In this document: in pieces, positions 3,429 through 63,825 of the stretch
Layout of the letters: the number at the start of each line of letters is the position of its first letter
How positions within the stretch are numbered: position 1 is the stretch's first letter
From: a virus
Lineage: Duplodnaviria; Heunggongvirae; Uroviricota; Caudoviricetes
IMG/VR virus record: IMGVR_UViG_3300032312_000788
Span: 10,986 to 74,985 of that record
Reading direction: 5' to 3' (one strand)
Length of the DNA: 64,000 nucleotides
Translations under genes and position numbers: made by a program
The notes under the pieces: generated by a model
Database searches by the model: none
The model's input: only the letters and a program-made list of their open reading frames with translations
What the model was told of the DNA's origin: nothing

Positions 3429-3457
3429 CAATATAAAATCGATATTTAAATATCGGT

Positions 3458-4651
3458 ATGTTTCTAAATTCTAGTCCATTTGTAAGCCCATTTCCAGCAT
3501 CACCTTTCCAAAATATCAATAAATCAGTTGTCCAAGAAGAACAGCCAAAAGAGAATAGGTATTTGAATTTTTTGGCGGGGCGTGATGGTTGCGCGAGCTA
3601 CCGTCGCGGATTCTTAGAAAACCATATAAATCTTACAGGATTGGGTGATTCCATGTCTATGACAAAAATGATTTTAGATAAATCATTTTATAGAGATATC
3701 AGAACAATTACTCTACAGAGGCAAGCATCAGATCATCAAAAAGAATTTATGAAATTCTTGAAATCCATTCAACCAGAAATGGGATTCAAGTTAATTTACG
3801 AAGTCGATGATGTTGTTTTCAGAGAAGAAATTCCTGATTATAATGCTTCTAAATTTGGATTCGATGATGATAATATTCGTCAAAATTGTATTGAAATGAT
3901 CAATATGGTAGATGAAGTCACGGTCACGTGTAAGTTCATGCGTGACTTATACGTAGAAAAGACTGGTAAAAAGGAGATTACAGCGGTTCCGAATTTCATG
4001 CCTTATTGGTGGATTGGTCATCAGTATGATTATAGAAAAATTTGTGATAATTTCGAAAAATACAAAAGAAAACCAAGAATAGTGTATGCTGGATCTGGTG
4101 CTCATTTTGATATGAAAAATAAGGTTGGTCAACAGGATGACTTTTCGCATGTTCTAAAATTCATTATTGATAATCGACACAAGTATCAGTTTGTCTTTAT
4201 TGGTGCTTATCCACCTCCTTTACAGCCTTATGTGGTGGCACGTGAGATCGAGTTCCATCCATGGAAAAGTCTTCTAGAATATCCCACATTCTTAGCTTCT
4301 TTAAATGCTCAATTGTTTATCGCTCCCCTACAAGATAATAATTTCAATAAGGCTAAATCCGATATTAAATTCATCGAAGCTGCCCAATTGGGAATTCCTT
4401 GTTTGTGTCAGGATTTGGTGACTTATTCTAGTGCTCCAGATTTCCTAAGATTTACAACTGCTGAAGATTTAGAGGATAAAATTCAAAAACTTCTTAAGAA
4501 TAAAGCTGGATATTATCGTCTGGTCGATGATCTTAGAAAAGTTGGATCATCTAGATTCCTAGAGCTTGAACCAAATGTTGGTAGTTTCATGGAAGCTTTG
4601 AATACAGAATACGGTTCAAGGGATCGAAAATTCCTGAAAATGTGGAATTGA
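3458..4651 (+). CDS. GT-B fold glycosyltransferase (GT4-like)
   Basis: IYEVDD, VTVTCxFM, PRIVYAGS and C-terminal APLxDNxFNxAKSDIKFIEAAxxGIPC nucleotide-sugar-binding signature. Confidence 0.85.
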   Translation: MFLNSSPFVSPFPASPFQNINKSVVQEEQPKENRYLNFLAGRDGCASYRRGFLENHINLTGLGDSMSMTKMILDKSFYRDIRTITLQRQASDHQKEFMKFLKSIQPEMGFKLIYEVDDVVFREEIPDYNASKFGFDDDNIRQNCIEMINMVDEVTVTCKFMRDLYVEKTGKKEITAVPNFMPYWWIGHQYDYRKICDNFEKYKRKPRIVYAGSGAHFDMKNKVGQQDDFSHVLKFIIDNRHKYQFVFIGAYPPPLQPYVVAREIEFHPWKSLLEYPTFLASLNAQLFIAPLQDNNFNKAKSDIKFIEAAQLGIPCLCQDLVTYSSAPDFLRFTTAEDLEDKIQKLLKNKAGYYRLVDDLRKVGSSRFLELEPNVGSFMEALNTEYGSRDRKFLKMWN

Positions 4652-4675
4652 CTTTCGGTGAATAACTGATACAGT
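4648..4675 (+). promoter_or_regulatory. Sigma70-type early promoter of gp43
   Basis: TTGACT-N16-TACAGT with TG at the extended -10 position; GTG start 6 nt downstream. Confidence 0.65.
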
Positions 4676-4681
4676 CGAATT

Positions 4682-7225
4682 GTGTATAGAAACTGTGTAT
4701 ATTCAAACAGAGATCGAATGATCCACCTTTTCACTTGGGATGCCTATGGAAATAGGGTAAAACAAGAAATACCATACAAGCCATATATTATGCTTGAGGA
4801 TAAAAGTGGTGCTTTTAAAAGCATCTATGGAACGTTCCTTAAAAAGAGGGAGTTTGAAACTCAGTATGATAGGGGTAAATTCGTCAAAGAGTCTGGAGTT
4901 AAAAGATTTTTTGGAAATCTACCAGCATATCAGCAGTTTTTAATTGATGAATATTATAGAGATTCTGAGAAAGAGGAATTTTCACAATATCCTTTAAAGG
5001 TTTGTTTTGTGGATATCGAATGCCCAAGTAATCCAAATATTTCTGGGGGCGTTTTTCCAGAACCCTCACTTGCAGAGCAAGTCATAAATCTCATAGTTTG
5101 TTATGATTCACTGACAAAACGAAAAACAATTTTTGGATTAAAAAAATTTACGCCCGACGACGATGTAACAGATTATTATCATTGTAAATCAGAGCATGAT
5201 TTATTGAAGAGATTCATTGGACATATTTCATCGGATTATCCCGATGTTCTCTGTGGTTACAATTCAAATAACTTTGATATCCCATACTTGATTAATCGAA
5301 TTACTTTTGAATTGGGGAAAGACTGGGCTGATGAATTGTCCCCAATTGGAAGAATTTATGAAAAGGTTAATCCAAATGGCAAATTTGGTCAATCGTCCAC
5401 CGAATATGTTATCGAAGGAATGTCTTGTTTGGATTACTATGTCATGTATCAAAAATTCAATATGACAAAACAAGAATCCTATAAATTGGATTATATTGGA
5501 GAAGTTGAAGTTGGTGTCAATAAGGTAGAATACAAAGGAACGCTTTGGGAGTTGGCCAGAGACGATTGGGGAACTTTTGTTTCTTATTGTATTAGAGACG
5601 TAGATCTCTTGGTGAAACTGGATGAAAAATTGGATTATATTTCCTTATTGAGATTCTTGGCATATACGGGATTGTGTAGTTTGGAAAATGCTATTAAAAC
5701 AGTTCCGTGTATGAATGGCGCGATTGCAATTAAAGCAAGAGAACGCGGAGAATGCATTCCAACATTTGATAAACCCGTTACGGCTTATAAAGCTCCCGGT
5801 GGATATGTATCTGATCCGAAAATTGGGTTCACAGAAAACATAGTATCGTTTGACGCCAATTCTCTATACCCATCGGTGATGATTTCTTTAAATCTTTCAC
5901 CAGAAACTAAAATAGGAAAGGTTGAAAAGGTTGGAGAATTGATTAATATTCACCATGTATCGGGTAGAACGTTTGAATTGACTCCTGAAAAATTTGCCAT
6001 TTTCTTAAAAGAAGAAAAGGCGGCACTATCAAAATCAGGACATTTATTTTCACAAAAGAAGAAGGGTATCGTTCCAGAGTTCTTAGATAATCTTTACACA
6101 AAACGTAAAGAGATGAAAGAAAAGATGTTGGAGGCAAAACGAGCGGGAAATAAAGAAGCAGCAAATAAGTTTGACACCATCCAATATGCATATAAAATTC
6201 ACTTGAATAGTTTATATGGATACATGCTCAATAAGTATGCCCCCATGGGAGATGAGGATATTGGAACATCAGTCACGTTGACAGGACAAGCGGCAATTAA
6301 GCAATCTGTTGAAATTTTTTATGACTTTATGCGTAAAAAAATACCAAACGTGAATGAAGAGTTATTGCAACAAAGTTACATATACTCTGACACGGATTCT
6401 CAATATTTGTCGTTATTTTGGGTGGATAAAATTGGAATCGAGTTTAAAACAGACGGTAAAATATCTTCAGAATTTTATACATTGTGTGATGAAATAGAAA
6501 AGCACATCAATGATGGTATGACGATATGGGCCAAGAAAAATTTAAGAAGTGATGATTCTAGGTTTGTCTTCAAAAGAGAATCCATTTGTGACTCTGGAAT
6601 TTTTATTGGTAAAAAATACTATGTATTACACATTTTAGACGATGAGGGGGTTCTGGTCAACAAGTTTAAATATAAGGGGGTGGATGTTGTTAAAACCACG
6701 ATGCCCAAAGTGGTCAAACCATATGTTAAAAAGGTTATTGAACACATGATTCTATCAAAGTCCTTGCAAGAAACCAATAATTTATTCAATGAAGCATACG
6801 AAATCTTTAAAACATTACCCGCTGAAAGTATTTCTAAAATTAGTGGTATGAATAATTATGAGCAATATTCTAAAAAATGTAGTGGATTGAATGTTGCGAA
6901 GGGAGTCCCGTCGAATGTAAAATCGGCATATCACCACGATTATATTGTCAAAACTTTGAATTTAGAGGCAAAATACGACAAGTTTAAATCTGGAGACAAG
7001 GTTCGAAGTGTGTATGTAAAAACACCCAATAAATATAACATCTCAAATATAGGATTTAAAGAAAATTACCCAGAGGAATTTTTGGAAATATTCATGGTTG
7101 ACTATGAAAAAATGTTTGATAAGATGTTTTTTGCTGCTATTGAAAGGTTTTACAACGCAGTAAATTGGACATTACGAAAACCAAACGAAAATGTTAGAGT
7201 AGAATTGGAGGAATTTCTCAGTTAA
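4682..7225 (+). CDS. gp43: Family B DNA polymerase
   Basis: ExoI DIE, ExoII GYNSNNFD, motif A SFDANSLYPS, motif B KIHLNSLYG, motif C YSDTDS; GTG start; no intein-sized insertion. Confidence 0.97.
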   Translation: MYRNCVYSNRDRMIHLFTWDAYGNRVKQEIPYKPYIMLEDKSGAFKSIYGTFLKKREFETQYDRGKFVKESGVKRFFGNLPAYQQFLIDEYYRDSEKEEFSQYPLKVCFVDIECPSNPNISGGVFPEPSLAEQVINLIVCYDSLTKRKTIFGLKKFTPDDDVTDYYHCKSEHDLLKRFIGHISSDYPDVLCGYNSNNFDIPYLINRITFELGKDWADELSPIGRIYEKVNPNGKFGQSSTEYVIEGMSCLDYYVMYQKFNMTKQESYKLDYIGEVEVGVNKVEYKGTLWELARDDWGTFVSYCIRDVDLLVKLDEKLDYISLLRFLAYTGLCSLENAIKTVPCMNGAIAIKARERGECIPTFDKPVTAYKAPGGYVSDPKIGFTENIVSFDANSLYPSVMISLNLSPETKIGKVEKVGELINIHHVSGRTFELTPEKFAIFLKEEKAALSKSGHLFSQKKKGIVPEFLDNLYTKRKEMKEKMLEAKRAGNKEAANKFDTIQYAYKIHLNSLYGYMLNKYAPMGDEDIGTSVTLTGQAAIKQSVEIFYDFMRKKIPNVNEELLQQSYIYSDTDSQYLSLFWVDKIGIEFKTDGKISSEFYTLCDEIEKHINDGMTIWAKKNLRSDDSRFVFKRESICDSGIFIGKKYYVLHILDDEGVLVNKFKYKGVDVVKTTMPKVVKPYVKKVIEHMILSKSLQETNNLFNEAYEIFKTLPAESISKISGMNNYEQYSKKCSGLNVAKGVPSNVKSAYHHDYIVKTLNLEAKYDKFKSGDKVRSVYVKTPNKYNISNIGFKENYPEEFLEIFMVDYEKMFDKMFFAAIERFYNAVNWTLRKPNENVRVELEEFLS

Positions 7226-7500: not shown

Positions 7501-7536
7501 ATGACAAACAAGCACGTTCGTTGGCTAAATATATAA
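7501..7536 (+). pseudogene. 11-codon remnant (MTNKHVRWLNI) resembling the N-terminus of the gene at 8429
   Basis: ATG 7 nt after a TTGACT-N16-TAAATT promoter; shares ACAAGCACGT (7508-7517 = 8442-8451) and KHV with MENKDKHV at 8429; its TAA abuts the endonuclease ATG. Confidence 0.55.
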
Positions 7537-8397
7537 ATGGAACCAAACATGAACAAGGCGGGAGTCTATAAATTGGAGTGTATTAATAACGGAAAAGTTT
7601 ATATAGGAAAGACTATGAATTTTTCGAGGAGACTTCGAGATCATAAAAATTCGAAGCGTAAAGATCGATTACAAAATGCTATAAGAAAGTATGGGTGGGA
7701 TTCGTTCAGTGTCGAAATATTGGAGATTGTTGAGAATTTTAATAAATTGGAAGATAATGACTATCTTTTGATGAGGGAAGCATATTATATAGAAAGATTT
7801 GATGCTACTAATGTGGATAAAGGATATAACATGTGTAAATATTCCACCGACAGAACTGGAATTCCTCTCTCTGAGCAACACAAAGAAAAACTCAGACAAT
7901 CAAATTTTAACAGAGGTAAAAAACTTTCTGAAGAAATTAGAGAGAAAATGAGAGGTAGAAAAGTATCAGAAGAAACTAAAGAGAAATTAAGAAAACCAAA
8001 ATCTGAAGAAGCTAAACTAAATATGCGAAAGGCTCATTTGGGTAAAAAAAGAAAACCATTTTCTGAAGAACATAAAGAAAAACTAAGACAAGCTAGCTTG
8101 AGAAGATTAAGGAATTATTCACACTCTGAAGAAACTATAGAAAAAATTAGACAGTTGCATTTGGGAACTAGTCGTTCTGAGGAAACAAAAAACAAAATGA
8201 GTTTGGCTAGTTTAGGAAAACCCAAAACTGAGGAACACAGGGAAAAAATCAGAAAAGCGAATTTGGGTAAAAAACATTCAGACGAGTCAAAGGCAAAAAT
8301 GAGCAAATCTAAGATTGGGAAAAAAATGTCTGATGATCATAAAGAGAAAATTAGACAGGCGCATCTTAAGAGAAGAATTAGTAGAGAAAGTTATTGA
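7537..8397 (+). mobile_element. Free-standing GIY-YIG homing endonuclease with about 10 NUMOD3 repeats
   Basis: GVY-(X10)-YIG, R..H, NAIRKYG, E...I and GYN core, then ten (S/T)(E/D)xx(K/R/I)xx(L/M/I) repeats; own TAAATA box at 7526-7531. Confidence 0.93.
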
Positions 8398-11820: not shown

Positions 11821-13402
11821 TATATGTCAACCAGTGATTGTAGTTTTTGAATTTTTTAAATCCACGCTCTTCGAATTTTTCGATGGGTTTTGAAAATTTA
11901 GAATCCTTTTTGAATTGTTCTGTCATATAAATCATTACAGATTCTTCCATAGGAGTCTCATCTGATTTAGGATTCTCCCTTTCCCATTCATCGAATTGAG
12001 CTTGTAATTCATTGACAGCATCTTGTTCCTTTTTCATTTTTTCCAAGATTCTTTCTCTTTCTAATGGATTTCCGCCAACAGATGTCTTGATTAGTTCTTT
12101 CCTAGTCAAATTTAGAATAATTTTGGCTGTTTCTAACGCATCAGCGTGTGGATTTTTTTCAGACATATCGCTCTTTTTAGGAGCATATTTAGAATCAGTC
12201 TTGTGATACATGTCATACTTTCCTTCAAGTTGTGACATATACTTAGATATCTTATCTTGATACCTTGAGGTTAGAGTTTGTAAATCCGCCGATTTTATTT
12301 TCTCCTTAGCGGTTTGATATACTTGAAAATCATGTCGCAATTCCTCCGTATTGATAATCTTTTCATAAATGTCAGCATCATATCCGAAATATTTAGATTC
12401 TCCAGATGAAACTCTTCTTTCCAATTCTTGAATTATGAGATCTAATAATCTTTTTAAGTTTTCTGGTGCATTTGGGTGATTTTTAATACCATTAAAAGAT
12501 TTAACAACACCCTCTAAGCTTTGACCAATTCCTTTTTCTAGTTTGCCTTCTATCAAAGTCATCAAAGTTCCTATCGATGCTTCAAACTCTTTAACCGAAA
12601 TCTTTCCTAAGTAATAGTCAATTGTTTTATTCTCAACCTCCTGTTCATTGTTTTGTAGTTTGCTTCTAGATACCCATTTTTTTGGAGCTTCAGACGAATC
12701 ATAGTCTACGTTTTCTTGTCGAATACTTCGGTTATATGTTGAATTTTTTAACTTTAAAATGGATAAAAAGTCTAGAATAATTTCACCAGATAAAATTTTT
12801 GGATCTTTGGATGATGCAATTTTACCCCCTTTACTCCTAGACAAAATTCTAGGAAACATCAATTTATTCATTTCTTGAATATAAGGGTTCATTTTTATTG
12901 ACAATTCTCTGATATAATCAGGATCTAAGGAAGTGAGTTCTTCTTTGGTTTTTTCTCTGTGTTTGGCGATTTTACTTTTGGACTCCGATTTCCAATTCAA
13001 AACAAAATCTTTGAAAGCTTGAAAATCATTCATTCCGTCCAACATAACACCCATCACTTCACTGAATTTTTCAGGAGATTCCTCCTTAGCCGATACTAGT
13101 ATGTCATTAATTTGCGGCACTGCTGTTTGTTTTATTATATTGGCGGATTTTCTAGGATTCCATCCCATTCTTTGTTCGTGATTGGCGTAATCATCAATCA
13201 ATTCTCTCATATATACGAAGACTTTATTTTGTAATGGTCCCGAATTTTCATCTGGATTGATGTCGGATTTATAAAATTCTCTTAATTTTTTACATGCATC
13301 ATTTATTTCTTTGAATTTAAATATAGTAACTGGTTTACCACCACCCTCAGTTAATAATATATTTGCACGTTCAACAAAATAATCAAAATTCATATAACTC
13401 AT
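11813..13402 (-). CDS. Large hypothetical protein, probable head-internal protein; start revised from 13435
   Basis: TAAATA-N5-ATG; N-terminus MSYMNFDYFVERANILLTE|GG; K/E-rich and predicted helical. Confidence 0.7.
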   Translation of the reverse strand: MSYMNFDYFVERANILLTEGGGKPVTIFKFKEINDACKKLREFYKSDINPDENSGPLQNKVFVYMRELIDDYANHEQRMGWNPRKSANIIKQTAVPQINDILVSAKEESPEKFSEVMGVMLDGMNDFQAFKDFVLNWKSESKSKIAKHREKTKEELTSLDPDYIRELSIKMNPYIQEMNKLMFPRILSRSKGGKIASSKDPKILSGEIILDFLSILKLKNSTYNRSIRQENVDYDSSEAPKKWVSRSKLQNNEQEVENKTIDYYLGKISVKEFEASIGTLMTLIEGKLEKGIGQSLEGVVKSFNGIKNHPNAPENLKRLLDLIIQELERRVSSGESKYFGYDADIYEKIINTEELRHDFQVYQTAKEKIKSADLQTLTSRYQDKISKYMSQLEGKYDMYHKTDSKYAPKKSDMSEKNPHADALETAKIILNLTRKELIKTSVGGNPLERERILEKMKKEQDAVNELQAQFDEWERENPKSDETPMEESVMIYMTEQFKKDSKFSKPIEKFEERGFKKFKNYNHWLTYND

Positions 13403-13418
13403 GAGATTATTTAGTCTC

Positions 13419-13446
13419 TTGACAAAGAAAGTCACTGTGCTAGGAT
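13419..13446 (+). promoter_or_regulatory. Sigma70-type early promoter
   Basis: TTGACA-N16-TAGGAT with TG; ATG 6 nt downstream; back-to-back with the late box at 13408-13413 (- strand). Confidence 0.75.
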
Positions 13447-13452
13447 TGGTCC

Positions 13453-14190
13453 ATGGAGATTAAAAGAGTTCGGTATATATCCGCCACATCTAAAGATAAT
13501 GCAGAAAAAACAACCATCCACCAATCGACTAGGAAATTGTGTGTGGATTTTGTTGGTCATGCTGCACATTGGTATCTATTAAACAATAAAGAAAAGCTAT
13601 CTAAAAAATATAATGAAGCCATTGAAGATGCTATTTCTGACGATATAGATTGTTTGATTTTAGTTCATGATGATGTAATCCTAGAAGAAGACCCAATCCC
13701 TAAACTAGAAAAACTATTCGATGAATATGATTTGGTTGGGGTTGCTGGAGCATCTAAAATAGAATTAAAATCACCAGCATTGTGGCATTTGATGGGTGGA
13801 GGATTTTATAATGGACATAACCAATCAAATTTGCATGGAAGAGTTCAACACATTGTTGAGAGAGAACCGAATAATGGTGGATTGCAAGTGGGAATGGTAT
13901 ACAAAGAAAAGGTTGCAACGAATTTTGGATTTTATCCACACCGAGTAGTTATGATTGATGGTGTTTTTATGGCTTTAAATAGAAAAGCTATGGAGACAAT
14001 GAGATTTGATGAAGAATGCCCCTCGTCCTTCCATTTTTACGATTGCATTTCTTCGCTTGACTTTCATTTGGGGGGTGGTAGAGTCGGTGTAGGTGATATT
14101 TTAATAACTCATGAATCACCCGGACTTCGTGAGTTTTCCACGGACTGGTTGGAGGGAGAAAAATATTTTCTTAATAAATATGACCGATAA
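13453..14190 (+). CDS. GT-A fold glycosyltransferase (GT2-like, StrF/Glyco_tranf_2_5 type)
   Basis: YNEAI, ILVHDDV (DxD-like), VGVAG, IDGVFMA, RFDE..FHFYD, H.SPG. Confidence 0.85.
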   Translation: MEIKRVRYISATSKDNAEKTTIHQSTRKLCVDFVGHAAHWYLLNNKEKLSKKYNEAIEDAISDDIDCLILVHDDVILEEDPIPKLEKLFDEYDLVGVAGASKIELKSPALWHLMGGGFYNGHNQSNLHGRVQHIVEREPNNGGLQVGMVYKEKVATNFGFYPHRVVMIDGVFMALNRKAMETMRFDEECPSSFHFYDCISSLDFHLGGGRVGVGDILITHESPGLREFSTDWLEGEKYFLNKYDR

Positions 14191-15890: not shown

Positions 15891-15912
15891 TATAGACATC
15901 GTAAATATCGAT

Positions 15913-21101: not shown

Positions 21102-21109
21102 ATAATTGA

Positions 21110-23912: not shown

Positions 23913-23920
23913 ATTGTTAT

Positions 23921-44936: not shown

Positions 44937-44950
44937 GCTAAATAGTAATA

Positions 44951-48938: not shown

Positions 48939-48942
48939 GATT

Positions 48943-51757: not shown

Positions 51758-52578
51758 TTTTTATTCATATCATATATTTTATTCTTAGAAATATCATCAG
51801 CATTTGATGAATAAACTTTATCATCAGCAGTTAAGGATGGGAACAATACAGACGATACTTTACCACTGAAGTCATTGTCATATACTTGATTATTACCAAT
51901 TTCTTCAGGTGAGTTGGTGGAGCCATCGTGTTCATAACGTTTTGCAGTTATTTTCCACACATAATGCCCAAGCATTGGATTTAACCCACCACTAACGTCT
52001 TGATCCAATACCTCTGTTATTCTGAATATTTTAGAACCTCTATTACCCGGACGATCACAACCCAAGGATGTAACTTCCATTAAATCATCAGATTTTGGCT
52101 CTATTCTTTGACCATTATCTCTGTAGAAATTAGAGGCGATTGTATCCACACTCATTTGATTATCATATTCATCATACACTGATAAACCTTCCTCGGTTTC
52201 CATGTATTGTATAAATGTGTCAGTAAATTTTTTAATAGATATATAAGCCGTGAGATCATCATTTGACTCCATACCCCACCTAGACAAAGATATAGATTCC
52301 TCCAATTCCAAATAAGCCTTTATAGTGAATGGACCAGAATACTCTTGTGTTGGATGTTCTCCATATAGCATATTCATTGCTGATAAATTGAATCCATTTA
52401 CATAATAATTAAATTCTACCCCATAGTTATTGATCATTTCATCAAAGCCACTTTTAAATATAGCTCTCTCAGCTTGAAAATTACTAGGATCTGCAAACCC
52501 TCCACATCGAGGATTGTATACGCCAGCAAATATGTTCGATGGTTCTAAACAAGATAAAGGTGTTGGAGGGCATCCCAT
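51727..52578 (-). CDS. gp14: Neck protein
   Basis: I..YGVEFNYY, LYGE, F.IKAY, WGMES.DDLT.YIS, PK.DDL, FRITEV, LGHYVWKITAKRYE; TAAATA-N5-ATG. Confidence 0.75.
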   Translation of the reverse strand: MGCPPTPLSCLEPSNIFAGVYNPRCGGFADPSNFQAERAIFKSGFDEMINNYGVEFNYYVNGFNLSAMNMLYGEHPTQEYSGPFTIKAYLELEESISLSRWGMESNDDLTAYISIKKFTDTFIQYMETEEGLSVYDEYDNQMSVDTIASNFYRDNGQRIEPKSDDLMEVTSLGCDRPGNRGSKIFRITEVLDQDVSGGLNPMLGHYVWKITAKRYEHDGSTNSPEEIGNNQVYDNDFSGKVSSVLFPSLTADDKVYSSNADDISKNKIYDMNKNDNTLYGEYY

Positions 52579-52582
52579 ACAC

Positions 52583-52993
52583 TTATTTAGCTGTTGCTGG
52601 AGAAGCTTTAATGACTCTACCCACGATCATACCTTTTTGATTCTTGTATACCTCGATATCAGCACCAGAATTTTTAACGTTTCTAAATACTGTCGGCAAT
52701 CTCATATTCATAGCATTCTTGATCCCAGCCTGTTCTAATTCTGGATAGGTTAGAATACTACCACCAATATTCAACTTCTCATTTTGTTTTTTATATGGAC
52801 CTACTGTATGAAGATTCTTTTTATCTAAAATGTTAGGATTTTTTCCATTATGAGCTTGTAATGATGGGGCTGGTGTGCCATCAGCTAAATTATGACGATA
52901 TTCTCTAAGCAATGCAGCATCTTCATTATCTTCATTATTTTTAGAGTCTTTAAGTATTTGAAAATGATTAAAAAATTCAACAAATGATTTCAT
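52583..52993 (-). CDS. Hypothetical protein, probable head-internal protein
   Basis: MKSFVEFF N-terminus resembling the T4 IP capsid-targeting sequence; ALLRE|Y. Confidence 0.65.
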   Translation of the reverse strand: MKSFVEFFNHFQILKDSKNNEDNEDAALLREYRHNLADGTPAPSLQAHNGKNPNILDKKNLHTVGPYKKQNEKLNIGGSILTYPELEQAGIKNAMNMRLPTVFRNVKNSGADIEVYKNQKGMIVGRVIKASPATAK

Positions 52994-53011: not shown

Positions 53012-54157
53012 TTAAATCTGAATTTCTTTCCAAGAGTGATCAATTTCCTTGGGCTTATTCTCTTTCACTGATACAGGAACTAAGGTTTTGCTAATGTTTT
53101 CAATTTCTTTTTGTATTTTGCTTTTCGCTGAATTAAAAATCGATGATAATTTATTAATGTCTTTAGAATCGTAAGCTTTAAACAATTCTCTTAGAGTTTC
53201 GCTGGAACCGTCTAATTTCCATTGAACAAAATCATAAAATTCATCGAAGTCTGATGGATCTCCTCTTTCCATAGCCGAAATGATAGTTTTTAATTTTCTG
53301 TCAATATATTCCAAATTTTGACGATGTTCAGACATTTGAGTTGATTGTTTGATTCTAATATCTATTAATTTATCAATATTATCAATTTTAAGTTTTTTCA
53401 TAATTTTTGAGATGATTCTTTTTGCTTGAATTGCAAATTTATCATGTTCTCTTCTTAGATAATTCCCATAATCAGCGGATAATGTCATTTTTGAATCGTA
53501 TCTACTGTAATCCCTATCCACATCTTTCAATTCTGCTAAGAATTTTACAATTTTTCTAATATTTTTTCTTTTATAATCATTTTTCCATTTGTATATTGTT
53601 TGCTGTTCGATATTTGATAAATTTATGATATCATCAATAGATGATTCTGGATTTTTGTTTTGAATGAAATCATTATAACTAGAAAAATATATCATAGCTA
53701 TCCCCAATTTCTTAGCATATTCTTCAACCCTTTTTATATAATGGGCATATGAATGACCATAATCGGGCGATATCCAACAATATATACCCATAATATATTT
53801 TCTAGCGTTCGGTATAACTGGAGAAGAAGAATATATACGATCTTCCATTTCATTGGTTTCTTTGGAACGATCTTTGAGTCCACTTCCCGCCCAATAATCA
53901 ATCGGTTTTCCTTTAAATTTTTGATTTAATAAAGATCCATTGAGTTTGAACATGATACCTGTTGGACTTTTGGAGTATGATCCCGTTTTGCTTCTAGCAG
54001 TCGATAAATAAAAAGGTTTTCCAGATTTTGTTGAATCCGGTCCAGTTTCAGTTCCAAGAGAAAATTTATTAGTTTTCAGAATTTCCAAGGGGCTATTCGA
54101 AATATGCCAGACTATATCTGACACAGATTCATAAAAAAAATCGACAAATGGCTTCAC
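53012..54157 (-). CDS. Putative ADP-ribosyltransferase-fold protein, probable head cargo
   Basis: TAAATA-N6-GTG; MKPFVDFFYE|S leader; VWH / YLSTARS / NEMEDR in the H-S-ExE order of ART folds. Confidence 0.55.
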   Translation of the reverse strand: MKPFVDFFYESVSDIVWHISNSPLEILKTNKFSLGTETGPDSTKSGKPFYLSTARSKTGSYSKSPTGIMFKLNGSLLNQKFKGKPIDYWAGSGLKDRSKETNEMEDRIYSSSPVIPNARKYIMGIYCWISPDYGHSYAHYIKRVEEYAKKLGIAMIYFSSYNDFIQNKNPESSIDDIINLSNIEQQTIYKWKNDYKRKNIRKIVKFLAELKDVDRDYSRYDSKMTLSADYGNYLRREHDKFAIQAKRIISKIMKKLKIDNIDKLIDIRIKQSTQMSEHRQNLEYIDRKLKTIISAMERGDPSDFDEFYDFVQWKLDGSSETLRELFKAYDSKDINKLSSIFNSAKSKIQKEIENISKTLVPVSVKENKPKEIDHSWKEIQI

Positions 54158-54171
54158 TTACAATATTTAAC

Positions 54172-54196
54172 AAAAAAGCCTGCGATTAAGCAGGCT
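54172..54196 (-). terminator. Intrinsic terminator
   Basis: AGCCTGC/GCAGGCT stem with 6-nt loop, followed by U6 on the - strand, downstream of 54229-55212. Confidence 0.85.
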
Positions 54197-54228
54197 CAAT
54201 TGATTGTTGATTTTTTTATAATTTAAGA

Positions 54229-54810
54229 TTAACGGAAGTAATCTTGTTTAGCCTTTAAAGTTGATTTAGGAACCTGATTATTGTGACCCATAAGGGCTGT
54301 AATTGGAGGAGCACTATGAGTTGTCTTAGTGTCATCAGTTACATCTGTCTTGGCTTTATTACCACCCTTTGGGTTAGCTCTTCCACCAACCTTATTAGAT
54401 TTAGCTTGGAATGCTGCTTTCTTATCTGGAGCAGGCTTAGTGCCTTGGGTTTCTTCGTCTTCTTCGAAATCCATATCATCATCTTCACCACCGAAATCCA
54501 TATCATCATCTTCATCACCGAAGTCAAGATCATCATCTTCACCACCGAATTCATCACCACCTTCTTCATCTCCAAGAGCACCTTGAAGAACATCGATTAG
54601 GCTTTGTGCCATTGCGCGATCTAAAGTAAAGGTAACAGAATCTTCTTCACCACCAAAGTCGTCTTCTTCACCACCAAAGTCGTCTTCCATATCGGAGTCT
54701 GGTGTTGCATCATCAAGACCAAGGGCATCGAGATCATCTCCTTCGTTAGGTTGACCGAAATTTTCTTTAAGAACCTTATTAAACAATTTATCAAAAGCTG
54801 ATTTGCTCAT
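54229..54810 (-). CDS. Nested in-frame short isoform (193 aa)
   Basis: Internal CTAAATA(54816-54822)-N5-ATG in frame; begins MSKSAFDKLFNKVLKE|N. Confidence 0.6.
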   Translation of the reverse strand: MSKSAFDKLFNKVLKENFGQPNEGDDLDALGLDDATPDSDMEDDFGGEEDDFGGEEDSVTFTLDRAMAQSLIDVLQGALGDEEGGDEFGGEDDDLDFGDEDDDMDFGGEDDDMDFEEDEETQGTKPAPDKKAAFQAKSNKVGGRANPKGGNKAKTDVTDDTKTTHSAPPITALMGHNNQVPKSTLKAKQDYFR

Positions 54811-55212
54811 ATGCTTATTTAGCCTGTCGGTTGCAATTTTTTTAGATTCTTGAATTTCTTCTGACTCAGATCTCTCCAAACCACTTTCTATATTCTTTAA
54901 AGATTTTTTTATTGACGATTTATCTTTAGCTGAAATATTTGGATTCTTCAATTTTTCCTTTAATTTATCTGCACTCTTCGAGATCTTAGATTTGGGTAGA
55001 TATTTGGACACATCATCGTTTTCCTCATCCTCCTCAGCTGCTTTATTCTCTGCTTTATTGTATCCATCAGCAGATTCGGGACCATCTTTTTGTTTTTTAT
55101 TACGGAATTCACCATCGAAGGTTTTCGGAGTCTTAGATTCCTTAATTGTGTGAACAGAATTCAACATTTTTCCATAAATATCACCTAAAGATACAGAGTC
55201 TTTTTGTTTCAT
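54229..55212 (-). CDS. Putative prohead core/internal head protein (long isoform)
   Basis: TAAATA-N5-ATG; TIKE|S, IQE|S and VLKE|N candidate cleavage sites; long D/E/G-rich tract; divergent from terminase. Confidence 0.7.
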   Translation of the reverse strand: MKQKDSVSLGDIYGKMLNSVHTIKESKTPKTFDGEFRNKKQKDGPESADGYNKAENKAAEEDEENDDVSKYLPKSKISKSADKLKEKLKNPNISAKDKSSIKKSLKNIESGLERSESEEIQESKKIATDRLNKHMSKSAFDKLFNKVLKENFGQPNEGDDLDALGLDDATPDSDMEDDFGGEEDDFGGEEDSVTFTLDRAMAQSLIDVLQGALGDEEGGDEFGGEDDDLDFGDEDDDMDFGGEDDDMDFEEDEETQGTKPAPDKKAAFQAKSNKVGGRANPKGGNKAKTDVTDDTKTTHSAPPITALMGHNNQVPKSTLKAKQDYFR

Positions 55213-55217
55213 ATAGT

Positions 55218-55233
55218 TATTTAGTCTTAAATA
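55218..55233. promoter_or_regulatory. Back-to-back divergent late promoters
   Basis: TATTTA-GTCT-TAAATA; starts 5 nt (55212, - strand) and 6 nt (55240, + strand) away. Confidence 0.75.
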
Positions 55234-55239
55234 TGTAAT

Positions 55240-57048
55240 ATGCCTAGACTATCTAAAATTAAAGAGCCTAAATTATCTAAGAAGGAGATGTATCTTGGTA
55301 ATCCAAACTTACCATCCCAAGATGTTAAATTCGAGTATACCACGGAGCAGGCTGAAGAAGTGGAAAAATGTATGAATGATATGAGCTATTTCGCTGAAAA
55401 TTATTTCTACATTATCACAGATGAGGGGAAGGAATTGATTCCGTTATATCCATATCAGAGAAGATTGATAGAAGCTTGTAAAAATCACAGATTTAATATA
55501 GTTTTAAGCTCAAGACAGAGTGGGAAAACTACGAATTTAACAATCTTAGCATTATTTGAAGCGTGTTTTAAAGACTATAAAAATATTATTATAGTCGCAA
55601 ACAAAGAAGATACAGCTAAGATGATTTTTAAACGTGTAAAGATGGCATATGAAGCACTACCAATTTGGTTGAAGCCGGGTGTTAAATCTTGGGGTCAGAC
55701 GAGTTTAGAATTAGCTAATGGTAGTTATATAGGAATCTCCACCACCACCGGATCAGCAGCTCGGGGACAAACCATTCACGTTTTATTGCTGGATGAGCTT
55801 GCGTTCATTGAACCAGATTCTATAGTAGAAGATTTTATGAGATCGGTTCTTCCAACAATTTCTAGATCTAAAAAATCAAAAATTTTGATAACATCGACAC
55901 CTAGAGGGACAAACAATGTCTTTTATAAAATGTATACTGCTGCTACAAAAAAAGGAACAGATGATTGGAATGGATTTAATTATGAAAGAGTTGATTGGAG
56001 AGAGTTACCTGATCGTGATGAAGAGTGGAGAAAACAAGAAATAGCCAAACTAGGCTCTATTGAAGCATTTAATCAAGAATACGATTGCGAATTCCTTGAG
56101 GATGGATCATCCGCAATCGATGCGACATTATTCGATGAATTAAAACGGAGTTGCACTGAACCCAAGCATTTACTAGATGATGGTCACTATAAAATTTGGG
56201 AAGATCCAGATCCATCGAGATTATATGTAGCGGGTGTTGATGTATCTGAAGGAGTTGGTGGGGATGCATCTGTAATTCAGATGCTAGACATTACTGATCT
56301 CAAAGATATCAGACAAGTTGCTGAATATCATAGTAATACTATAGCCCCAGCAGAATTTTCTAATAAATTACATGATATTCTCCTAAATTGGGGAAGTCCA
56401 TTAGTTTTAATTGAAAGAAATAACCAAGGTGGTCAAGTTTGTGATAGATTAGCAATGGATTTTGCTTACGAGAAGGTTGTGTCATGGGGTGCGAAGCAAG
56501 CTCACAAAAATCAACAGTTTGGAGTATTATCTCATACCAATACTAAACATGCTGCTATTTTAAATCAGAGATATTTCATTAATGAAATCAGAAACGTAAC
56601 ATTCAGATCTATCCATACCTTGAATGAATTCAAAACATTTATTAGATATCCAAACGCTACATGGAAAGCTAAAGGTGGTGAACATGATGACCGTGTTATG
56701 GCATTTGTTTGGGCTTTGATGATTTTACATCGAGAAATCACACAAATGTATTTCGAAATCGATGAAGAAGATGATTATGGTAAACCCGCTAAGATAACTC
56801 CATATAATTACGGTATAAAGATGTTTGAAAATCCAACATCTATCTATACAAATGAACAAGTTGATAAAATCGAGAATTCTAATCTATCTCCAATGGCTTT
56901 TGGTGCATTTGGAGAAGCTGATGATGAAATGGCTGGATTATTTGCTGAAGGCTGGATGCCTCTGAATGGAGCAATGCCTTATGTGGACCCATCTAGATCT
57001 TATAGTCAGGATAGATATGATGCTATGGAGAGAGTGATGCAATGGTAA
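55240..57048 (+). CDS. gp17: Terminase large subunit
   Basis: YQ..LI, Walker A SRQSGKT, RG, Walker B LLLDELAF, TSTP.G, nuclease GVDVSEG and HDDRVMA. Confidence 0.96.
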   Translation: MPRLSKIKEPKLSKKEMYLGNPNLPSQDVKFEYTTEQAEEVEKCMNDMSYFAENYFYIITDEGKELIPLYPYQRRLIEACKNHRFNIVLSSRQSGKTTNLTILALFEACFKDYKNIIIVANKEDTAKMIFKRVKMAYEALPIWLKPGVKSWGQTSLELANGSYIGISTTTGSAARGQTIHVLLLDELAFIEPDSIVEDFMRSVLPTISRSKKSKILITSTPRGTNNVFYKMYTAATKKGTDDWNGFNYERVDWRELPDRDEEWRKQEIAKLGSIEAFNQEYDCEFLEDGSSAIDATLFDELKRSCTEPKHLLDDGHYKIWEDPDPSRLYVAGVDVSEGVGGDASVIQMLDITDLKDIRQVAEYHSNTIAPAEFSNKLHDILLNWGSPLVLIERNNQGGQVCDRLAMDFAYEKVVSWGAKQAHKNQQFGVLSHTNTKHAAILNQRYFINEIRNVTFRSIHTLNEFKTFIRYPNATWKAKGGEHDDRVMAFVWALMILHREITQMYFEIDEEDDYGKPAKITPYNYGIKMFENPTSIYTNEQVDKIENSNLSPMAFGAFGEADDEMAGLFAEGWMPLNGAMPYVDPSRSYSQDRYDAMERVMQW

Positions 57049-57056
57049 ATATTACA

Positions 57057-57632
57057 ATGGGACGCAAATTAAATTTATTTCGTAGTCTTATCAACTGGAT
57101 TCGTAGTTTATTTGAAGAAAAAATAAATTGGGATTCTATAGATAAAAGTGGAGTAGTTCTATCAGATTATCCTGTTGTTGACAAAGGATGGATAAAAGGA
57201 TGGGTATCTGGGGAAGATGAGATTATTGTATGCAAGCACTCAAATCCAGTTGTTGGTAATTCGGTTTATGTTATTAAAGATGGGGTAAAAATCTTCAGAA
57301 AAATCGAATCCGTTGACAATACATACGCTTCCGATGATGTGTCCATATGCAAATTAACACAAAAATGGCCAGCGGGTGTAAAAATTTATAAGATAAGTAA
57401 AACTATCAAAAAAATGCAATTGATGGGAACTTTACATCAAGACAATACAATATCTCTCCGTAGAGCCCTGTTGGATGATAGAATTGTGTTTGGGACTTAT
57501 TATAATAGAGATATAATAGCTGGTGATAGTGGATTGCCTTGGTTTGTTTGGGAAGATGGAGAATTTAAAGTTTGTAGTCATTCGCATCGTGGAATGTGGG
57601 GTATCGGACCAAATTATTTTTCAATTTTTTGA
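57057..57632 (+). CDS. Trypsin-like (S1) serine protease; start revised from 57042
   Basis: IVCKH (His), DDVSICKL (Asp), AGDSGLP (Ser) in correct order; TAAATA(57046-57051)-N5-ATG. Confidence 0.7.
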   Translation: MGRKLNLFRSLINWIRSLFEEKINWDSIDKSGVVLSDYPVVDKGWIKGWVSGEDEIIVCKHSNPVVGNSVYVIKDGVKIFRKIESVDNTYASDDVSICKLTQKWPAGVKIYKISKTIKKMQLMGTLHQDNTISLRRALLDDRIVFGTYYNRDIIAGDSGLPWFVWEDGEFKVCSHSHRGMWGIGPNYFSIF

Positions 57633-57645
57633 TTAAATACAAGAA

Positions 57646-57828
57646 ATGATAACCTTTGATATAACAGTCACATATAATTTGTTGATGAATTTTCGATATG
57701 AAATAATGTCAGGTAAATTAAAAATAGGATCGGATATTCCTATGTTTTTGGTGGATGTATTGAAAAAAGATAAATATTATAACTCGTTTGTATATGATAT
57801 ATTGACGACCTACCAGATTTCTAAATAA
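57646..57828 (+). CDS. Small late protein
   Basis: TAAATA-N6-ATG; its AAA-TAA end forms the next late box. Confidence 0.55.
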   Translation: MITFDITVTYNLLMNFRYEIMSGKLKIGSDIPMFLVDVLKKDKYYNSFVYDILTTYQISK

Positions 57829-57832
57829 ATGT

Positions 57833-58417
57833 ATGAGTGATATCACAAAACAATCATACTTAAACAGAGCAAGGGAGGATAAATTCCTCTTAGTTTTTGA
57901 TGTTCCACCAATTCTAAAACCAATAGTATCCAGATATCAAAGAGATGATAATCATATAAATCCTGATTCTGTCCAATTCTCAATCTTCGGAACAATGGTT
58001 CCAGAGATTACTGTAAAAGGTGTAGAAACTAGGTATTCTGGATCTACCTTATATATATCATCATTCAGTAAAGATTCTTACCCACCTCTGAATGTTGAAT
58101 TCAAGGTAGATTCTGAATACAATAACTATTGGGTGATCTACTCTTGGTTGAATCTATTACACGATCAAGAAACTGGTATATATAACCAAAACAATATCCC
58201 TGTTGATGGTGATTTTAATGATTACATGACAGATATCACAGTATATGGATTGGATGAGTTTGGTAAGAAGCGTATTAAGTTCACATATAAGAAAGCTTTT
58301 CCTACTAGCATTAACGAAATCAAATACAATCAACAAAATTCTGAAGGAACTGAGATCACTAGCGGTTTCACATTTTTATACTCACAACTTCATACTGAAT
58401 TGGTAAGAGATTACTGA
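57833..58417 (+). CDS. gp3: Tail completion/tube terminator-like protein
   Basis: Tube-fold pattern VQFS.....VPEI, L.V.F.VD..YNNY..IY.WL, F.YK.AFPTSI. Confidence 0.65.
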   Translation: MSDITKQSYLNRAREDKFLLVFDVPPILKPIVSRYQRDDNHINPDSVQFSIFGTMVPEITVKGVETRYSGSTLYISSFSKDSYPPLNVEFKVDSEYNNYWVIYSWLNLLHDQETGIYNQNNIPVDGDFNDYMTDITVYGLDEFGKKRIKFTYKKAFPTSINEIKYNQQNSEGTEITSGFTFLYSQLHTELVRDY

Positions 58418-60854: not shown

Positions 60855-62576
60855 ATGAATTTAAAAGAAGAATTAAAAAAATACCAGAACGAAAAAGGAG
60901 ATTTTAACGGTAAAAAATTAAAATTGTCGGGGTTGTTGAATTTTATAAAAAAGGAAACATCATTTTTGGATGATTATAATCCACCAAACCAAGAGCGATA
61001 TCATTGTATCTTAAATGATATAACTGAGGTATTATATTGTCCCTTGACGAAAGAAAAGTTAAAATTTTCACTGGTTAAAAAACGCTATGCTAATAATATC
61101 GAGTTTAGTCGAAAAAATAGAAAAAACGATATTCGAGTTAAAAAATTTGATTACAAAACCAGAAACGCTAATTTGTGGGAAAATATTATTCGGACGTATA
61201 AATCTAACGATTTCGAGTTATTATCGAAGGAAGAATGTTTAACGTTATATAACAATTTCACTAATAAAAAAAGTTCTGTGATATCCCTAACGAAGGCTGT
61301 TATAGAAATAAATTTGGTGTGTAGTATATTTAAACATACAGATTTCATGCAACCAGTCATCTTAAATTTGGCTGAGAGATGTTATTGTATAGAAAACAAT
61401 ATTGACAGTATACAAGTGGATTACAAAGGAATCCCACTAAAATTTAGAGATAGAACCTATGGGTATTCTGTTTATGGTAAAAAAGGAACAATGTATAATC
61501 ATAAATTAGAAAATATGAAAGAGTCTTTAGGTGAAAAATATATAGTTAATGATTTTACGAGAAATTTTTCAGATAAAGGAAGTGATATGAGTAGATTATC
61601 ATTGACCTGTAAAGTATGTGATCACACATTTTTGTCATTGTTTGCGAATGGATTGTGGAAAGATGTCGAATGTCCTAAATGTGCTGGATTTGTGGACATA
61701 TCTTTAAGCAGATCCAAAATGGAAATTCAATTGGTTAAATTTTTAAAAGACAATGCGATTACCAATATTATAGAAAATGATAGAAAGATTTTAAAAGGTT
61801 ATGAATTGGATCTATATCTACCAGATCACAATTTTGCTGTCGAATTGTGTGGTTTGGCTTGGCACTCTTTTGGAACCAGTTTTCCAAACAATTCAGATGA
61901 TGAAAAATCTAAAAAATATAGACATTTCGAGAAATATAAAAAATGTAAAAATTTGGGAATAACTCTACTCACTGTTTTTGAAAACGAATGGAAATATAAA
62001 GAAGAATTAGTAAAATCTATAATACTAAACAAATTAAATAAAAGCCCAAATAGAATATATGCCAGAAAATGCAGATTTTCGGAAGTTTCAAGCCGAGAAG
62101 GTAATAAGTTTCTGGATATTAATCATATACAAGGACATTGTTCTTATTCTGAGTCATATGGCTTATATTATAATGATGAGTTAGTTTCTTTAATGTGCTT
62201 CGGTAAAAGAAAATTGACGAGGGGTAAATGTGAATATGAGTTGATAAGATTCTGTAATAAATTGAACACCTCGGTTATTGGTGGTGCGAGTAAAATTTTA
62301 AAAAATTCTAATGTCGATAATTTTATCTCTTATTGCGATCTTAGATATAGTAATGGGAATTTGTATAAATCTCTTGGGATGGATTTGTTGAGAACCACCA
62401 CTCCGAATTACTATTACGTAAAGCATTTGACATTATATCATAGGATGAATTTTCAAAAACATAAAATATCTTTTGATAGTGATACTAGGACAGAAAGGGA
62501 AATAATGTATTCAAATGGGTATAGGAGGATTTATGATTGTGGAAATTTAGTTTTTAGTTATCGAAAGACTAAATAA
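60855..62576 (+). mobile_element. Hef-like free-standing endonuclease (Vsr/PD-(D/E)xK-type domain fused to GNAT-like domain)
   Basis: CKVC..CPKC, then ELDLYLP..NFAVELCG.AWH and VFENEW, then IYARKC..NHIQG..YELIRFC..GGASK..SYCD..YSNG..YDCG; sits between gp18 and gp19. Confidence 0.8.
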
Positions 62577-62580
62577 TTAT

Positions 62581-63147
62581 ATGGCAGTAGATATTCAAAC
62601 TTTCTATAATATAGCAGCTCAAAAGCAATTCCAAAGGGATTTCTTTCTTAGGGTTAAACAAATTCGCGCTGTAGGACTTGATCTCGACGGTGAAAATGAA
62701 CTTGTTTTTGCTAAAACAGCTAAAATTCCCGGTAGAGATATTGAGGATAAAACAGTTAGCTATAGTGGACAAATCTTTCACCTTAATGGTAGAGCAGTAT
62801 ATCCCGGATCAGAATCCTATGCGATTGAATTTTTCGCAGACCAAGAATTAGATCTTAGAACAAAACTAGAGAAAATGTCTAGGGCTACTTTCAATAATGA
62901 AACCACAACTGGTCAAATGTGTATGCCGGGACCAGAATCCTATATGATTCTTGATGTGCTTAAAGTTCCTTGTGGTCAAGGTAATCAGGGTGGACAAGGT
63001 ATGGAGGTTGTAAAAACAATTAAGCTTGTTGGAGTCAATCTTAGAACTATTGGTGAAATGAATTACTCTATTGCTGATGGAACTGGTGAGGTTGTTACTC
63101 TAAATGCAACATTTTCATATCATTGGTATGAGGATTTTAGTAACTGA
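62581..63147 (+). CDS. gp19: Tail tube protein
   Basis: F.AKTA.IPGR, Y.GQ.F.L.G, F..D..LR.KLE.M, TF.Y.WYE; TAAATA-N5-ATG. Confidence 0.85.
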   Translation: MAVDIQTFYNIAAQKQFQRDFFLRVKQIRAVGLDLDGENELVFAKTAKIPGRDIEDKTVSYSGQIFHLNGRAVYPGSESYAIEFFADQELDLRTKLEKMSRATFNNETTTGQMCMPGPESYMILDVLKVPCGQGNQGGQGMEVVKTIKLVGVNLRTIGEMNYSIADGTGEVVTLNATFSYHWYEDFSN

Positions 63148-63166
63148 TCTAAAATTATAAATTCTT

Positions 63167-63201
63167 AAATCACAATAGTCTTCGGATTATTGTGATTTTT
63201 T
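63167..63201 (+). terminator. Intrinsic terminator with C(UUCG)G tetraloop
   Basis: 14-bp stem with one G-U pair, TTCG loop, U-run after gp19. Confidence 0.9.
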
Positions 63202-63222
63202 ATTTATGTATTAAATATTCTC

Positions 63223-63825
63223 ATGGGTGGACCTAATATTGAGGAATTTTATTCAGCATTCTCAGGAGATAGACGATTTTTCTTAAATCTTCCTGTCTTA
63301 TGGACTGTAACCATCGATGGCGTGTCCACAGGTGCCATAAATAGCGTTTTAAGCGATGCTGGGGAGTCTTGGCAAGCGAAGGGTAGTCCGGGTTCATACA
63401 CTCGCTCAGGATCGATTTTAGTGGCTCAAGAGGTTGGTTTACCGAATGAATCATCTAACTTTGCAGCATTGGAATCTGGATCATCTATGGGTGGATTTTT
63501 ACCGGGATATGGGATGACATCCAGAGGTAATTTTCTCAATAGAAGCATAACCGTAAATTTTCTAGAAACTGAAATCGATATAGAACACATATTTTTTAGA
63601 CCATGGATGATTGCTGTAGGTATTAAAGGTCTGGTAGAAAGCGGTCCATCATTGAAAGGTAATATGATAGTTAAGCAATATACCAATGGAGGTAAATTTA
63701 TTAAAGGATTTCAATTTAAAAAACTATTTCCTACAGCAGTAGAGGGATACACTCTAAATTACGACAACACTGATATAAAAATCAAATCAGTAACATTCGC
63801 TTGTGAAAATTACGTTCAACTTTAA
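63223..63825 (+). CDS. Baseplate tail-tube initiator-like protein (gp54/gp48 tube fold)
   Basis: V.LPNE, ITVNFLETE, F.PWM, F.KLFPT.V, V.FA..NY; TAAATA-N5-ATG. Confidence 0.65.
   Translation: MGGPNIEEFYSAFSGDRRFFLNLPVLWTVTIDGVSTGAINSVLSDAGESWQAKGSPGSYTRSGSILVAQEVGLPNESSNFAALESGSSMGGFLPGYGMTSRGNFLNRSITVNFLETEIDIEHIFFRPWMIAVGIKGLVESGPSLKGNMIVKQYTNGGKFIKGFQFKKLFPTAVEGYTLNYDNTDIKIKSVTFACENYVQL

Follow-up and report, generated by a model that had tools for sequence, protein, structure and literature searches.

Start-codon-fused TAAATA boxes as candidate gp55-type late promoters of leaderless messages in an uncultured T4-like phage

The textbook model of late transcription is T4, whose late genes carry leaders of the classical kind that contain ribosome-binding sites. 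Here we describe a 64,000-nucleotide stretch of virus DNA (hereafter the window), bases 10,986-74,985 of the linear 138,985-bp IMG/VR contig IMGVR_UViG_3300032312_000788 (G000), in which the hexamer TAAATA stands 5 or 6 nt (N5 or N6) before numerous start codons. We propose that this box, in the form (C/T)TAAATA, is a gp55-type late promoter fused to start codons and that the late mRNAs are leaderless, a reading of the sequence to which we assign a probability of roughly 0.7. Both of its parts, gp55-type late promoters and leaderless mRNAs, are known; their combination here is new, and the full-text literature on leaderless mRNA together with T4-like late promoters or gp55 yielded no description of this layout. 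The source phage is T4-like by its gene set and uncultured. A close relative, G001 (202,205 bp with terminal repeats, mostly 80-99% nucleotide identity), fills 55 kb missing from G000, and the portal, protease and major capsid genes are found there.

Spacing, conservation and the absence of Shine-Dalgarno sequences

Directly observed are the motif with its spacing and conservation, the avoidance of the motif elsewhere, the lack of Shine-Dalgarno (SD) sequences and a gp55 gene. A preliminary description of the window had listed 29 starts preceded by TAAATA at N5 or N6, and all of them are real (21 at N5 and eight at N6; 27 ATG and two GTG, the latter at 15913 and 54157). Modelled gene starts account for 28, the remaining one, 54810(-), being an in-frame internal ATG, and two further boxed starts absent from that list were found at 2784 (N8) and 41293 (N7). 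Over the whole contig TAAATA occurs 171 times, both strands together; an ATG that opens an open reading frame (ORF) of at least 40 codons follows at N5 in 33 cases and at N6 in nine, and every other offset from 0 to 40 holds 0-3 sites. The expected positional enrichment also holds against shuffled controls: of the 215 gene starts, 44 have a box at N5/N6, compared with 1.3 expected when the 30-nt region upstream of each gene is shuffled (2000 shuffles; maximum 7). When all 4096 hexamers are ranked, phase-locking to ATG is seen only for TAAATA (offset 5) and the AACACT(A) family (offset 15-16). At N5 the TAA of the box does not share the frame of the ATG, and the N5 count also admitted ATGs other than the first of their ORF, so the peak is not an artefact of ORF definition.

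A logo of 36 N5 sites displays an invariant TAAATA with Y at -12 and R at -13; nothing is conserved farther upstream, there is no -35 element, and the spacer between box and start is AT-rich, as after the T4 box. The 47 boxed genes of the contig start with ATG (44) or GTG (3) and never with TTG, which fits the marked preference of leaderless mRNAs for AUG. Only 14 intergenic boxes lie at a spacing other than N4-8. The boxed starts of the window are as follows (window positions; strand in brackets).

2770..2786 (+): box-N8-ATG, 214-aa gene, start at 2784
3447..3460 (+): box-N5-ATG, glycosyltransferase gene; TTGACA also upstream
7526..7539 (+): box-N5-ATG, GIY-YIG homing endonuclease gene
13400..13413 (-): box-N5-ATG, 529-aa gene
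15902..15915 (+): box-N5-GTG, DHH-like gene
21099..21112 (+): box-N5-ATG, 97-aa gene
23910..23923 (-): box-N5-ATG, 168-aa gene
24398..24436 (both strands): back-to-back pair with a 33-bp gap; box(-) 24406-24411 and ATG 24400, box(+) 24423-24428 and ATG 24434
31198..31212 (-): box-N6-ATG, first gene of the fibre operon; second, overlapping box at 31203-31208
34077..34091 (-): box-N6-ATG, 949-aa gene
36350..36364 (-): box-N6-ATG, 755-aa gene
39529..39543 (-): box-N6-ATG, 891-aa gene
41207..41220 (-): box-N5-ATG, 317-aa gene
41280..41295 (+): box-N7-ATG, 71-aa gene, start at 41293
43119..43153 (-): box-N5-ATG, 221-aa gene, ATG 43121; a tandem 21-bp duplication (AATCACGACTAACTAAATAAT, 43127-43153) gives a second box at 43148-43153
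43996..44037 (both strands): back-to-back pair; box(-) 44004-44009 and ATG 43998, box(+) 44024-44029 and ATG 44035
44939..44953 (+): box-N6-ATG, baseplate wedge gene
48932..48945 (+): box-N5-ATG, 215-aa gene; box overlaps the stop codon of the upstream gene
52576..52589 (-): box-N5-ATG, head-closure (Hc2-like) gene
54155..54197 (-): intrinsic terminator 54197-54176, box 54169-54164, N6, GTG 54157; 381-aa gene
54808..54821 (-): box-N5-ATG, internal, at codon 135 of ORF 54229-55212; nested 193-aa acidic protein predicted
55210..55242 (both strands): back-to-back pair with a 27-bp gap; box(-) 55218-55223 and ATG 55212 (acidic scaffold-like gene), box(+) 55228-55233, N6, ATG 55240 (large terminase)
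57046..57059 (+): box-N5-ATG, 191-aa gene
57634..57648 (+): box-N6-ATG, 60-aa gene
57822..57835 (+): box-N5-ATG, tail-tube-like gene; box kept in 38/39 distinct relatives and overlapping the upstream stop codon
58443..58456 (+): box-N5-ATG, tail sheath gene; box kept in 35/35 distinct relatives
62570..62583 (+): box-N5-ATG, tail tube gene; N5 box in 35/35 distinct relatives, overlapping the upstream stop codon
63167..63225 (+): 14-pair terminator 63167-63198, box 63212-63217, N5, ATG 63223; tube-like 200-aa gene; box kept in 35/36 relatives, GTG in several

The preliminary description had also suggested that the box points to better start codons than the automatic gene models. This applies to 15913, where homology to G001 begins exactly at the box, and to 43998 and 44035, where an antisense overlap is avoided; 57057 is one of two candidate starts, the other being the ATG at 57042.

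Conservation was followed in relatives, 65 IMG/VR contigs of which encode sheaths 51-100% identical to that of G000. The box stands at N5/N6 before the sheath gene in 35 of 35 distinct upstream sequences and before the tube gene in 35 of 35, all of them N5; it is found in 38 of 39 before the first tube-like gene and in 35 of 36 before the gene beyond the tube terminator. The spacers and flanks of these conserved boxes vary, with a majority-base fraction of 0.43-0.65 outside the box, and the N5/N6 peak is present in every long relative.

The geometry had been said to leave no room for an SD site, and a scan of the anti-SD type agrees: SD cores (GGAG, GAGG or AGGA, counted at -18 to -4) are found at 8.3% of G000 starts, against a background of 7.2%. 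The same cores reach 54% in T4 and 45% in Pelagibacter phage HTVC008M, which served as positive controls, and 7.4% in 16 relatives. The 215 modelled genes fall into those with a late box (47), those with an AACACTA-type motif (41), those with a host-type promoter (6), those joined to the upstream gene (85) and those with none of these (36). As proposed earlier, genes inside operons use overlaps or tiny gaps, with distances of -4 (27 genes), -8 (9), -1 (4) and +1 to +5 (22). Phage-encoded bS21, IF3 and IF1, which might favour leaderless translation, were not found in G000 and four related genomes.

Promoter geometry, late-transcription machinery and two further start-fused classes

Several observations place the function of the box at the level of DNA. 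Inside genes, TAAATA is depleted on the sense strand (42 observed vs 107 expected, z -6.4) and also on the antisense strand (49 vs 100, z -4.6), while nine AT-rich control hexamers and AACACTA stay at |z|<3. Because an RNA signal would face no selection on the antisense strand, the antisense depletion argues for a DNA-level signal. Of the terminators ahead of boxed genes, the two strongest, 54197-54176(-) and 63167-63198(+), are followed by box and start codon within 3-13 nt, and the order of hairpin, T-run, box and start is kept in relatives at both sites. The divergent pairs 24400/24434, 43998/44035 and 55212/55240 are separated by gaps of 27-36 bp and have one box per gene. With only 14 intergenic boxes off N4-8, almost no late promoters would be left if the N5 boxes were not such promoters. 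Nor do hidden host-type promoters appear to serve the late genes, since a generic sigma70 consensus scan revealed no enrichment in the late region (107 vs 108.9). Boxed genes are mainly virion genes and lie at 2-79 kb of the contig, the AACACTA motif preceding small genes at 85-137 kb; the boxed genes include those for sheath, tube, baseplate wedge, terminase and head closure in G000 and those for portal, protease and neck proteins in G001.

The assignment of the box to a T4 gp55-type element, made in the preliminary description, fits both the motif, which equals the T4 late promoter core, and the gene content. A gp55 homologue is encoded at G000:9319-9780 (phrog_234, the family of T4 gp55; E 4.5e-25); it is 28% identical to T4 gp55 and 33% to that of HTVC008M, with conserved region-2-like sigma blocks. 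In T4, the late promoter TATAAATA spans -13 to -6 and is served by the sigma factor gp55, the co-activator gp33 and the clamp gp45 (PMC2988020, PMC1524935). A gp44-type clamp-loader gene is present at window positions 41539-42459 (phrog_168, E 6e-76), and a candidate gp45-type sliding clamp gene at 20039..20761 (+) matches phrog_223 weakly (E 1.8e-7 and 4.9e-6). The clamp was found with phrog_223 alone, as the Pfam clamp models PF09116 and PF02916 and the HTVC008M clamp protein as queries gave no match.

As the T4 box ends at -6, TAAATA-N5 would place +1 on the A of the ATG, with the distance borrowed from T4. The preliminary description is too narrow in this respect, for on their sequences early and middle promoter classes appear start-fused as well: besides the late box, two promoter classes new here are fused to start codons at N6. 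The host-type class, TTGAC(A/T)-N16-TAnnnT, has 32 sites, and a start codon follows five of them at N6 and another at N7. The six genes in the class count given above were obtained with a stricter first pattern; the N16 pattern also yields six, four of them in common, and adds the DNA polymerase and clamp-loader genes. The second class, (A/T)AAACACTA-N3-tAnAaT-N6-ATG, precedes about 41 mostly small genes (ATG 40, TTG 1), 34 of 41 in one register. It lies at 85,000-137,000 of G000 on the + strand, lacks a -35 element, has a stem-loop before several copies, and is kept in 45 copies in G001. This AACACTA family looks like a phage-specific early or middle promoter with leaderless messages, and it may resemble the PeSL cassettes of T4-type phages. 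Members of both classes within the window are the following.

4648..4684 (+): TTGACT-N16-TACAGT-N6-GTG, DNA polymerase gene, start 4682
13419..13455 (+): TTGACA-N16-TAGGAT-N6-ATG, 245-aa gene
24832..24869 (+): TTGACT-N16-TAGAAT-N7-ATG, 149-aa gene
41505..42459 (+): TTGACA-N16-TAATCT-N6-ATG, start 41539, with the gp44-type clamp-loader gene
25320..25346 (+): AACACTA-type motif before ATG 25344
25635-25663: a further AACACTA-type motif

The clamp-loader gene and its start-fused host-type promoter (41505-42459) stand alone in the late region, between oppositely oriented virion genes.

The tAnAaT of the AACACTA class occupies -12 to -7. A sigma70-type -10 hexamer at these positions is expected to give an N6 spacing if transcription starts on the start codon, and the one-base difference between late-type N5 and sigma70-type N6 therefore fits promoter geometry and does not fit ribosome geometry. 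Taken with translational coupling, three start-fused promoter classes make the whole phage look leaderless or translationally coupled.

For the late genes we envisage that host RNA polymerase together with the phage gp55-like sigma factor would read the -10-type box without a -35 element, and that the clamp probably takes part, as in T4. Where +1 lies and how ribosomes load are here inferred. With N5 spacing, transcription would begin at the first base (A or G) of the start codon, and with N6-N8 spacing 1-3 nt before it, so that each independently initiated late cistron would be a leaderless mRNA. Ribosomes would then bind the 5'-terminal AUG with initiator tRNA, with no SD pairing needed. At genes without a box of their own, ribosomes would terminate and reinitiate without SD sequences across ATGA-type overlaps or 1-5-nt gaps, and the internal box in the acidic scaffold-like gene would likewise yield a nested, shorter protein. 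If the host-type and AACACTA classes are built in the same way, promoter choice alone would set when and where translation starts. We consider it somewhat better than an even bet that this amounts to a clade-wide programme of these abundant aquatic T4-like phages, in which host-, AACACTA- and gp55-type promoters all start on the start codon, other genes are coupled without SD sequences, and the choice of transcription start site (TSS) defines the proteome, nested proteins included. Such a programme, if true, implies host ribosomes that routinely load 5'-terminal AUGs and never need an SD sequence.

Alternative explanations and known systems

A number of observations weigh against leaderless late messages. 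The distance assumed between box and +1 is that of T4 and E. coli RNA polymerase, and in this host it may differ. Boxes inside operons would also be transcribed through from upstream promoters, and the AU-rich box may have an added role in RNA. In some relatives GTG stands at boxed starts, for example at one tube-like gene, and leaderless GUG is poorly translated by E. coli. The match to a sliding clamp is weak, with E values around 1e-6 to 1e-7. For gp33, a search with phrog_254, the family of T4 gp33, gave no match in G000 and four related genomes (CheckV completeness estimates of 100% for three and 96% for one), the protein being short and fast-evolving and the search having no positive control. 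Finally, two genes have long A-rich, SD-free leaders:

18572..18647 (+): gp32 (single-stranded DNA-binding protein) gene of G000, box 67 nt upstream of the ATG, A-rich leader without SD
104,599-104,680 of G001: major capsid gene, no late box, 68-nt A-rich leader

The gp32 leader is built of repeated AAAACAAAAT-like units and, by analogy, may be an autoregulatory operator as in T4 gene 32 mRNA. The capsid leader contains the hairpin AGGTCA-CAA-TGACCT, and an A-rich stretch of 30 nt lies between this hairpin and the ATG; as this gene has no box, the most abundant virion protein would be expressed differently. Both leaders suggest that host ribosomes can also start on leadered, SD-less mRNAs.

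These leaders bear on an alternative in which the box would be a late promoter and also, as UAAAUA-N5-AUG, an SD-independent landing or restart site on read-through transcripts, with leadered and leaderless messages both translated. Many boxes do lie 4-8 nt past the previous stop codon with no terminator between, those at 48932, 57822 and 62570 overlap that codon, and the gp32 and capsid genes indicate that A-rich, SD-free leaders work in this host. Yet nothing requires an RNA function: promoter function alone accounts for the antisense depletion, and early and middle genes carry a different sequence in the same place, so that no common RNA motif is needed. We regard such a dual role as unlikely. 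Even less can be said for a purely RNA-level translation element that replaces the SD sequence, with late promoters elsewhere. A short, fixed distance to the start codon is indeed reminiscent of a ribosome-binding site (RBS) and would suit a phage without SD sequences, but the antisense depletion is as strong as the sense depletion, boxes lie a few nt past strong terminators, and the box is identical to the known gp55 box in a phage that encodes gp55. In addition, only the 14 intergenic boxes would be left as other late promoters, early genes use a different motif, and the N5 versus N6 difference follows promoter rather than ribosome geometry; we hold this explanation to be quite improbable.

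The holoenzyme could also start at another distance from a genuine late promoter, either inside the ORF or several bases upstream, given that the TSS is extrapolated from T4, that gp55 is 28% identical to its T4 counterpart and that N6-N8 sites exist. A start downstream of the ATG, however, would leave the strictly conserved ATG/GTG at N5/N6 unexplained, while upstream at most 5-8 nt are available, a leader still far too short for an SD sequence; and the sigma70-type classes independently indicate +1 on the start codon, which makes this option very improbable. Almost no credence can be given to an artefact of composition or annotation arising from AT-rich upstream regions, upstream TAA stops and the definition of ORFs. 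The genome is 66% A+T and some boxes do contain the upstream stop codon, but shuffling predicts 1.3 sites against 44, hexamers of similar composition have no phase peak, the majority of boxed genes either open an operon or come after a gap that has nothing to do with stop codons, and T4 (36% GC) and HTVC008M (34% GC) lack the pattern at their sheath, tube and capsid genes. That the box is merely an upstream stop codon with AT-rich filler was rejected by a gap survey together with the shuffle test.

A start-fused gp55-type promoter shares a good deal with T4: the core box, the lack of a -35 element, the AT-rich stretch after the box, virion genes on both strands and a gp55 gene, alongside clamp and clamp-loader homologues in G000. 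T4 also has internal in-frame starts, in genes 17 and 21. The differences are that the T4 box lies 15-30 nt before the start codon with an SD sequence (GAGG, GGAG, AGGA) at every late gene, whereas the G000 box lies 5-6 nt away with no SD; that positions -13 and -12 are R and Y in G000 and T and A in T4; and that gp33, which T4 has, was not detected in G000 by the search lacking a positive control. The layout is thus unlike T4 itself, as the preliminary description held: T4 places SD leaders on the same genes, and so do cyanophage S-CAM3 and HTVC008M, with leaders of 15-35 nt and clear SDs at the sheath, tube, portal and capsid genes of all three. Neither a 50-kb T4 late region nor 41.6 kb of S-CAM3 has an N5/N6 peak. 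In HTVC008M, a cultured SAR11 myophage, the N5 peak is smaller, with 11 sites in 100 kb, and lies at other genes; this phage shares the start-fused box, but not for the main structural programme. When nine HTVC008M proteins were compared with G000 by tblastn, only gp55 was recovered, the rest being too distant.

Other parallels are known as well. The late promoter variant of Aeromonas phage Aeh1, CTAAATA (PMC1524935), is the same 7-mer, with C at -12 and a divergent gp55 alongside, while a fusion to start codons is not described for Aeh1 (PMC1524935). Middle and late messages of Thermus phage phiYS40 are mostly leaderless (PMC3594737, citing Sevostyanova 2007), and a pattern termed '-10 region adjacent to ORF' has been described in Deinococcus-Thermus (PMC12340547). 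PhiYS40 resembles G000 in that a promoter -10 element abuts the ORF (in G000 the late box at N5/N6 and the sigma70-type -10 at N6) and differs from it in phage lineage, host phylum and promoter type, which is not gp55; it is also reported to change host IF2/IF3 levels. Two more distant cases resemble G000 by analogy only. In lambda, the cI mRNA from PRM has its start codon at the transcription initiation site, as the single such gene of that phage. In poxviruses, late promoters (TAAATG) contain the start codon within the initiation site, with a 5' poly(A) leader made by slippage in the eukaryotic cytoplasm.

Altogether, a large and environmentally common branch of the T4 group appears to have dropped RBSs and to have joined the promoter to the start codon. 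If true, transcription and translation starts would both be set, in a system found in nature, by a single signal of about 14 nt, and this would amount to a definite statement on translation initiation in the host. It would also explain why each non-overlapping gene has its own promoter. For viromes, where standard gene callers presuppose an RBS, it would offer a simple rule by which to correct start codons and sort genes into temporal classes.

Nested product, relatives and neighbouring genes

The acidic gene divergent from the terminase gene, ORF 54229-55212(-), encodes a very acidic, low-complexity protein of 327 aa with the highest codon-usage score in the contig. It has no PHROG match and is probably a scaffold or internal head protein. 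Nineteen relatives retain its internal box with ATG (54810, codon 135), with nine different spacers among them, and in several relatives homology to the 327-aa protein begins only at the internal start. On sequence grounds, the box is predicted to give a nested 193-aa product from an internal leaderless promoter.

G000 has 33.8% GC and an estimated completeness of 69% (CheckV). Its virion genes encode a tail sheath, three tube-like proteins, a baseplate wedge, the large terminase and head closure, and its replication genes a DNA polymerase, a gp41-type helicase, a primase, gp32, UvsX, gp46/47 and a clamp loader. A 4-kb late segment had no match by blastn among 50,697 phage records. The closest catalogued terminases, those of cyanophages, share only about 35% identity with that of G000, which places the nearest catalogued phages very far away. 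When metagenome contigs were scanned for a 29-nt word conserved in the sheath gene, 43 marine DNA contigs were recovered, none of which ends at the boxed ATG.

As regards the host, no WhiB was found. The sole tRNA of G000 (128,451-128,526) is a tRNA-Met(CAT) of elongator (or Ile2) type; with its C1-G72 pair and no GGG/CCC anticodon stem, it is not an initiator. The single match in 185,579 species genomes is JASLGG010000063.1, a 55-kb, 33%-GC contig of a metagenome-assembled genome (MAG) labelled Protaetiibacter sp., with a sheath 62% identical and the box-N5-ATG kept. Protaetiibacter is a high-GC actinobacterial genus, and the 33%-GC contig is regarded as mis-binned and hence as no evidence of the host.

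Three paralogous tube-like genes flank the sheath gene (57833-58417, 62581-63147 and 63223-63825); all match phrog_45 and each has its own box. Between the sheath and tube genes, immediately past the sheath terminator, lies an HNH homing-endonuclease gene (60775-62576; phrog_3339, E 1.7e-94) with neither a TAAATA box nor another promoter motif upstream. G001 has a similar gene after its capsid gene. Unlike the HNH gene, the GIY-YIG endonuclease gene at 7537 has a late box.

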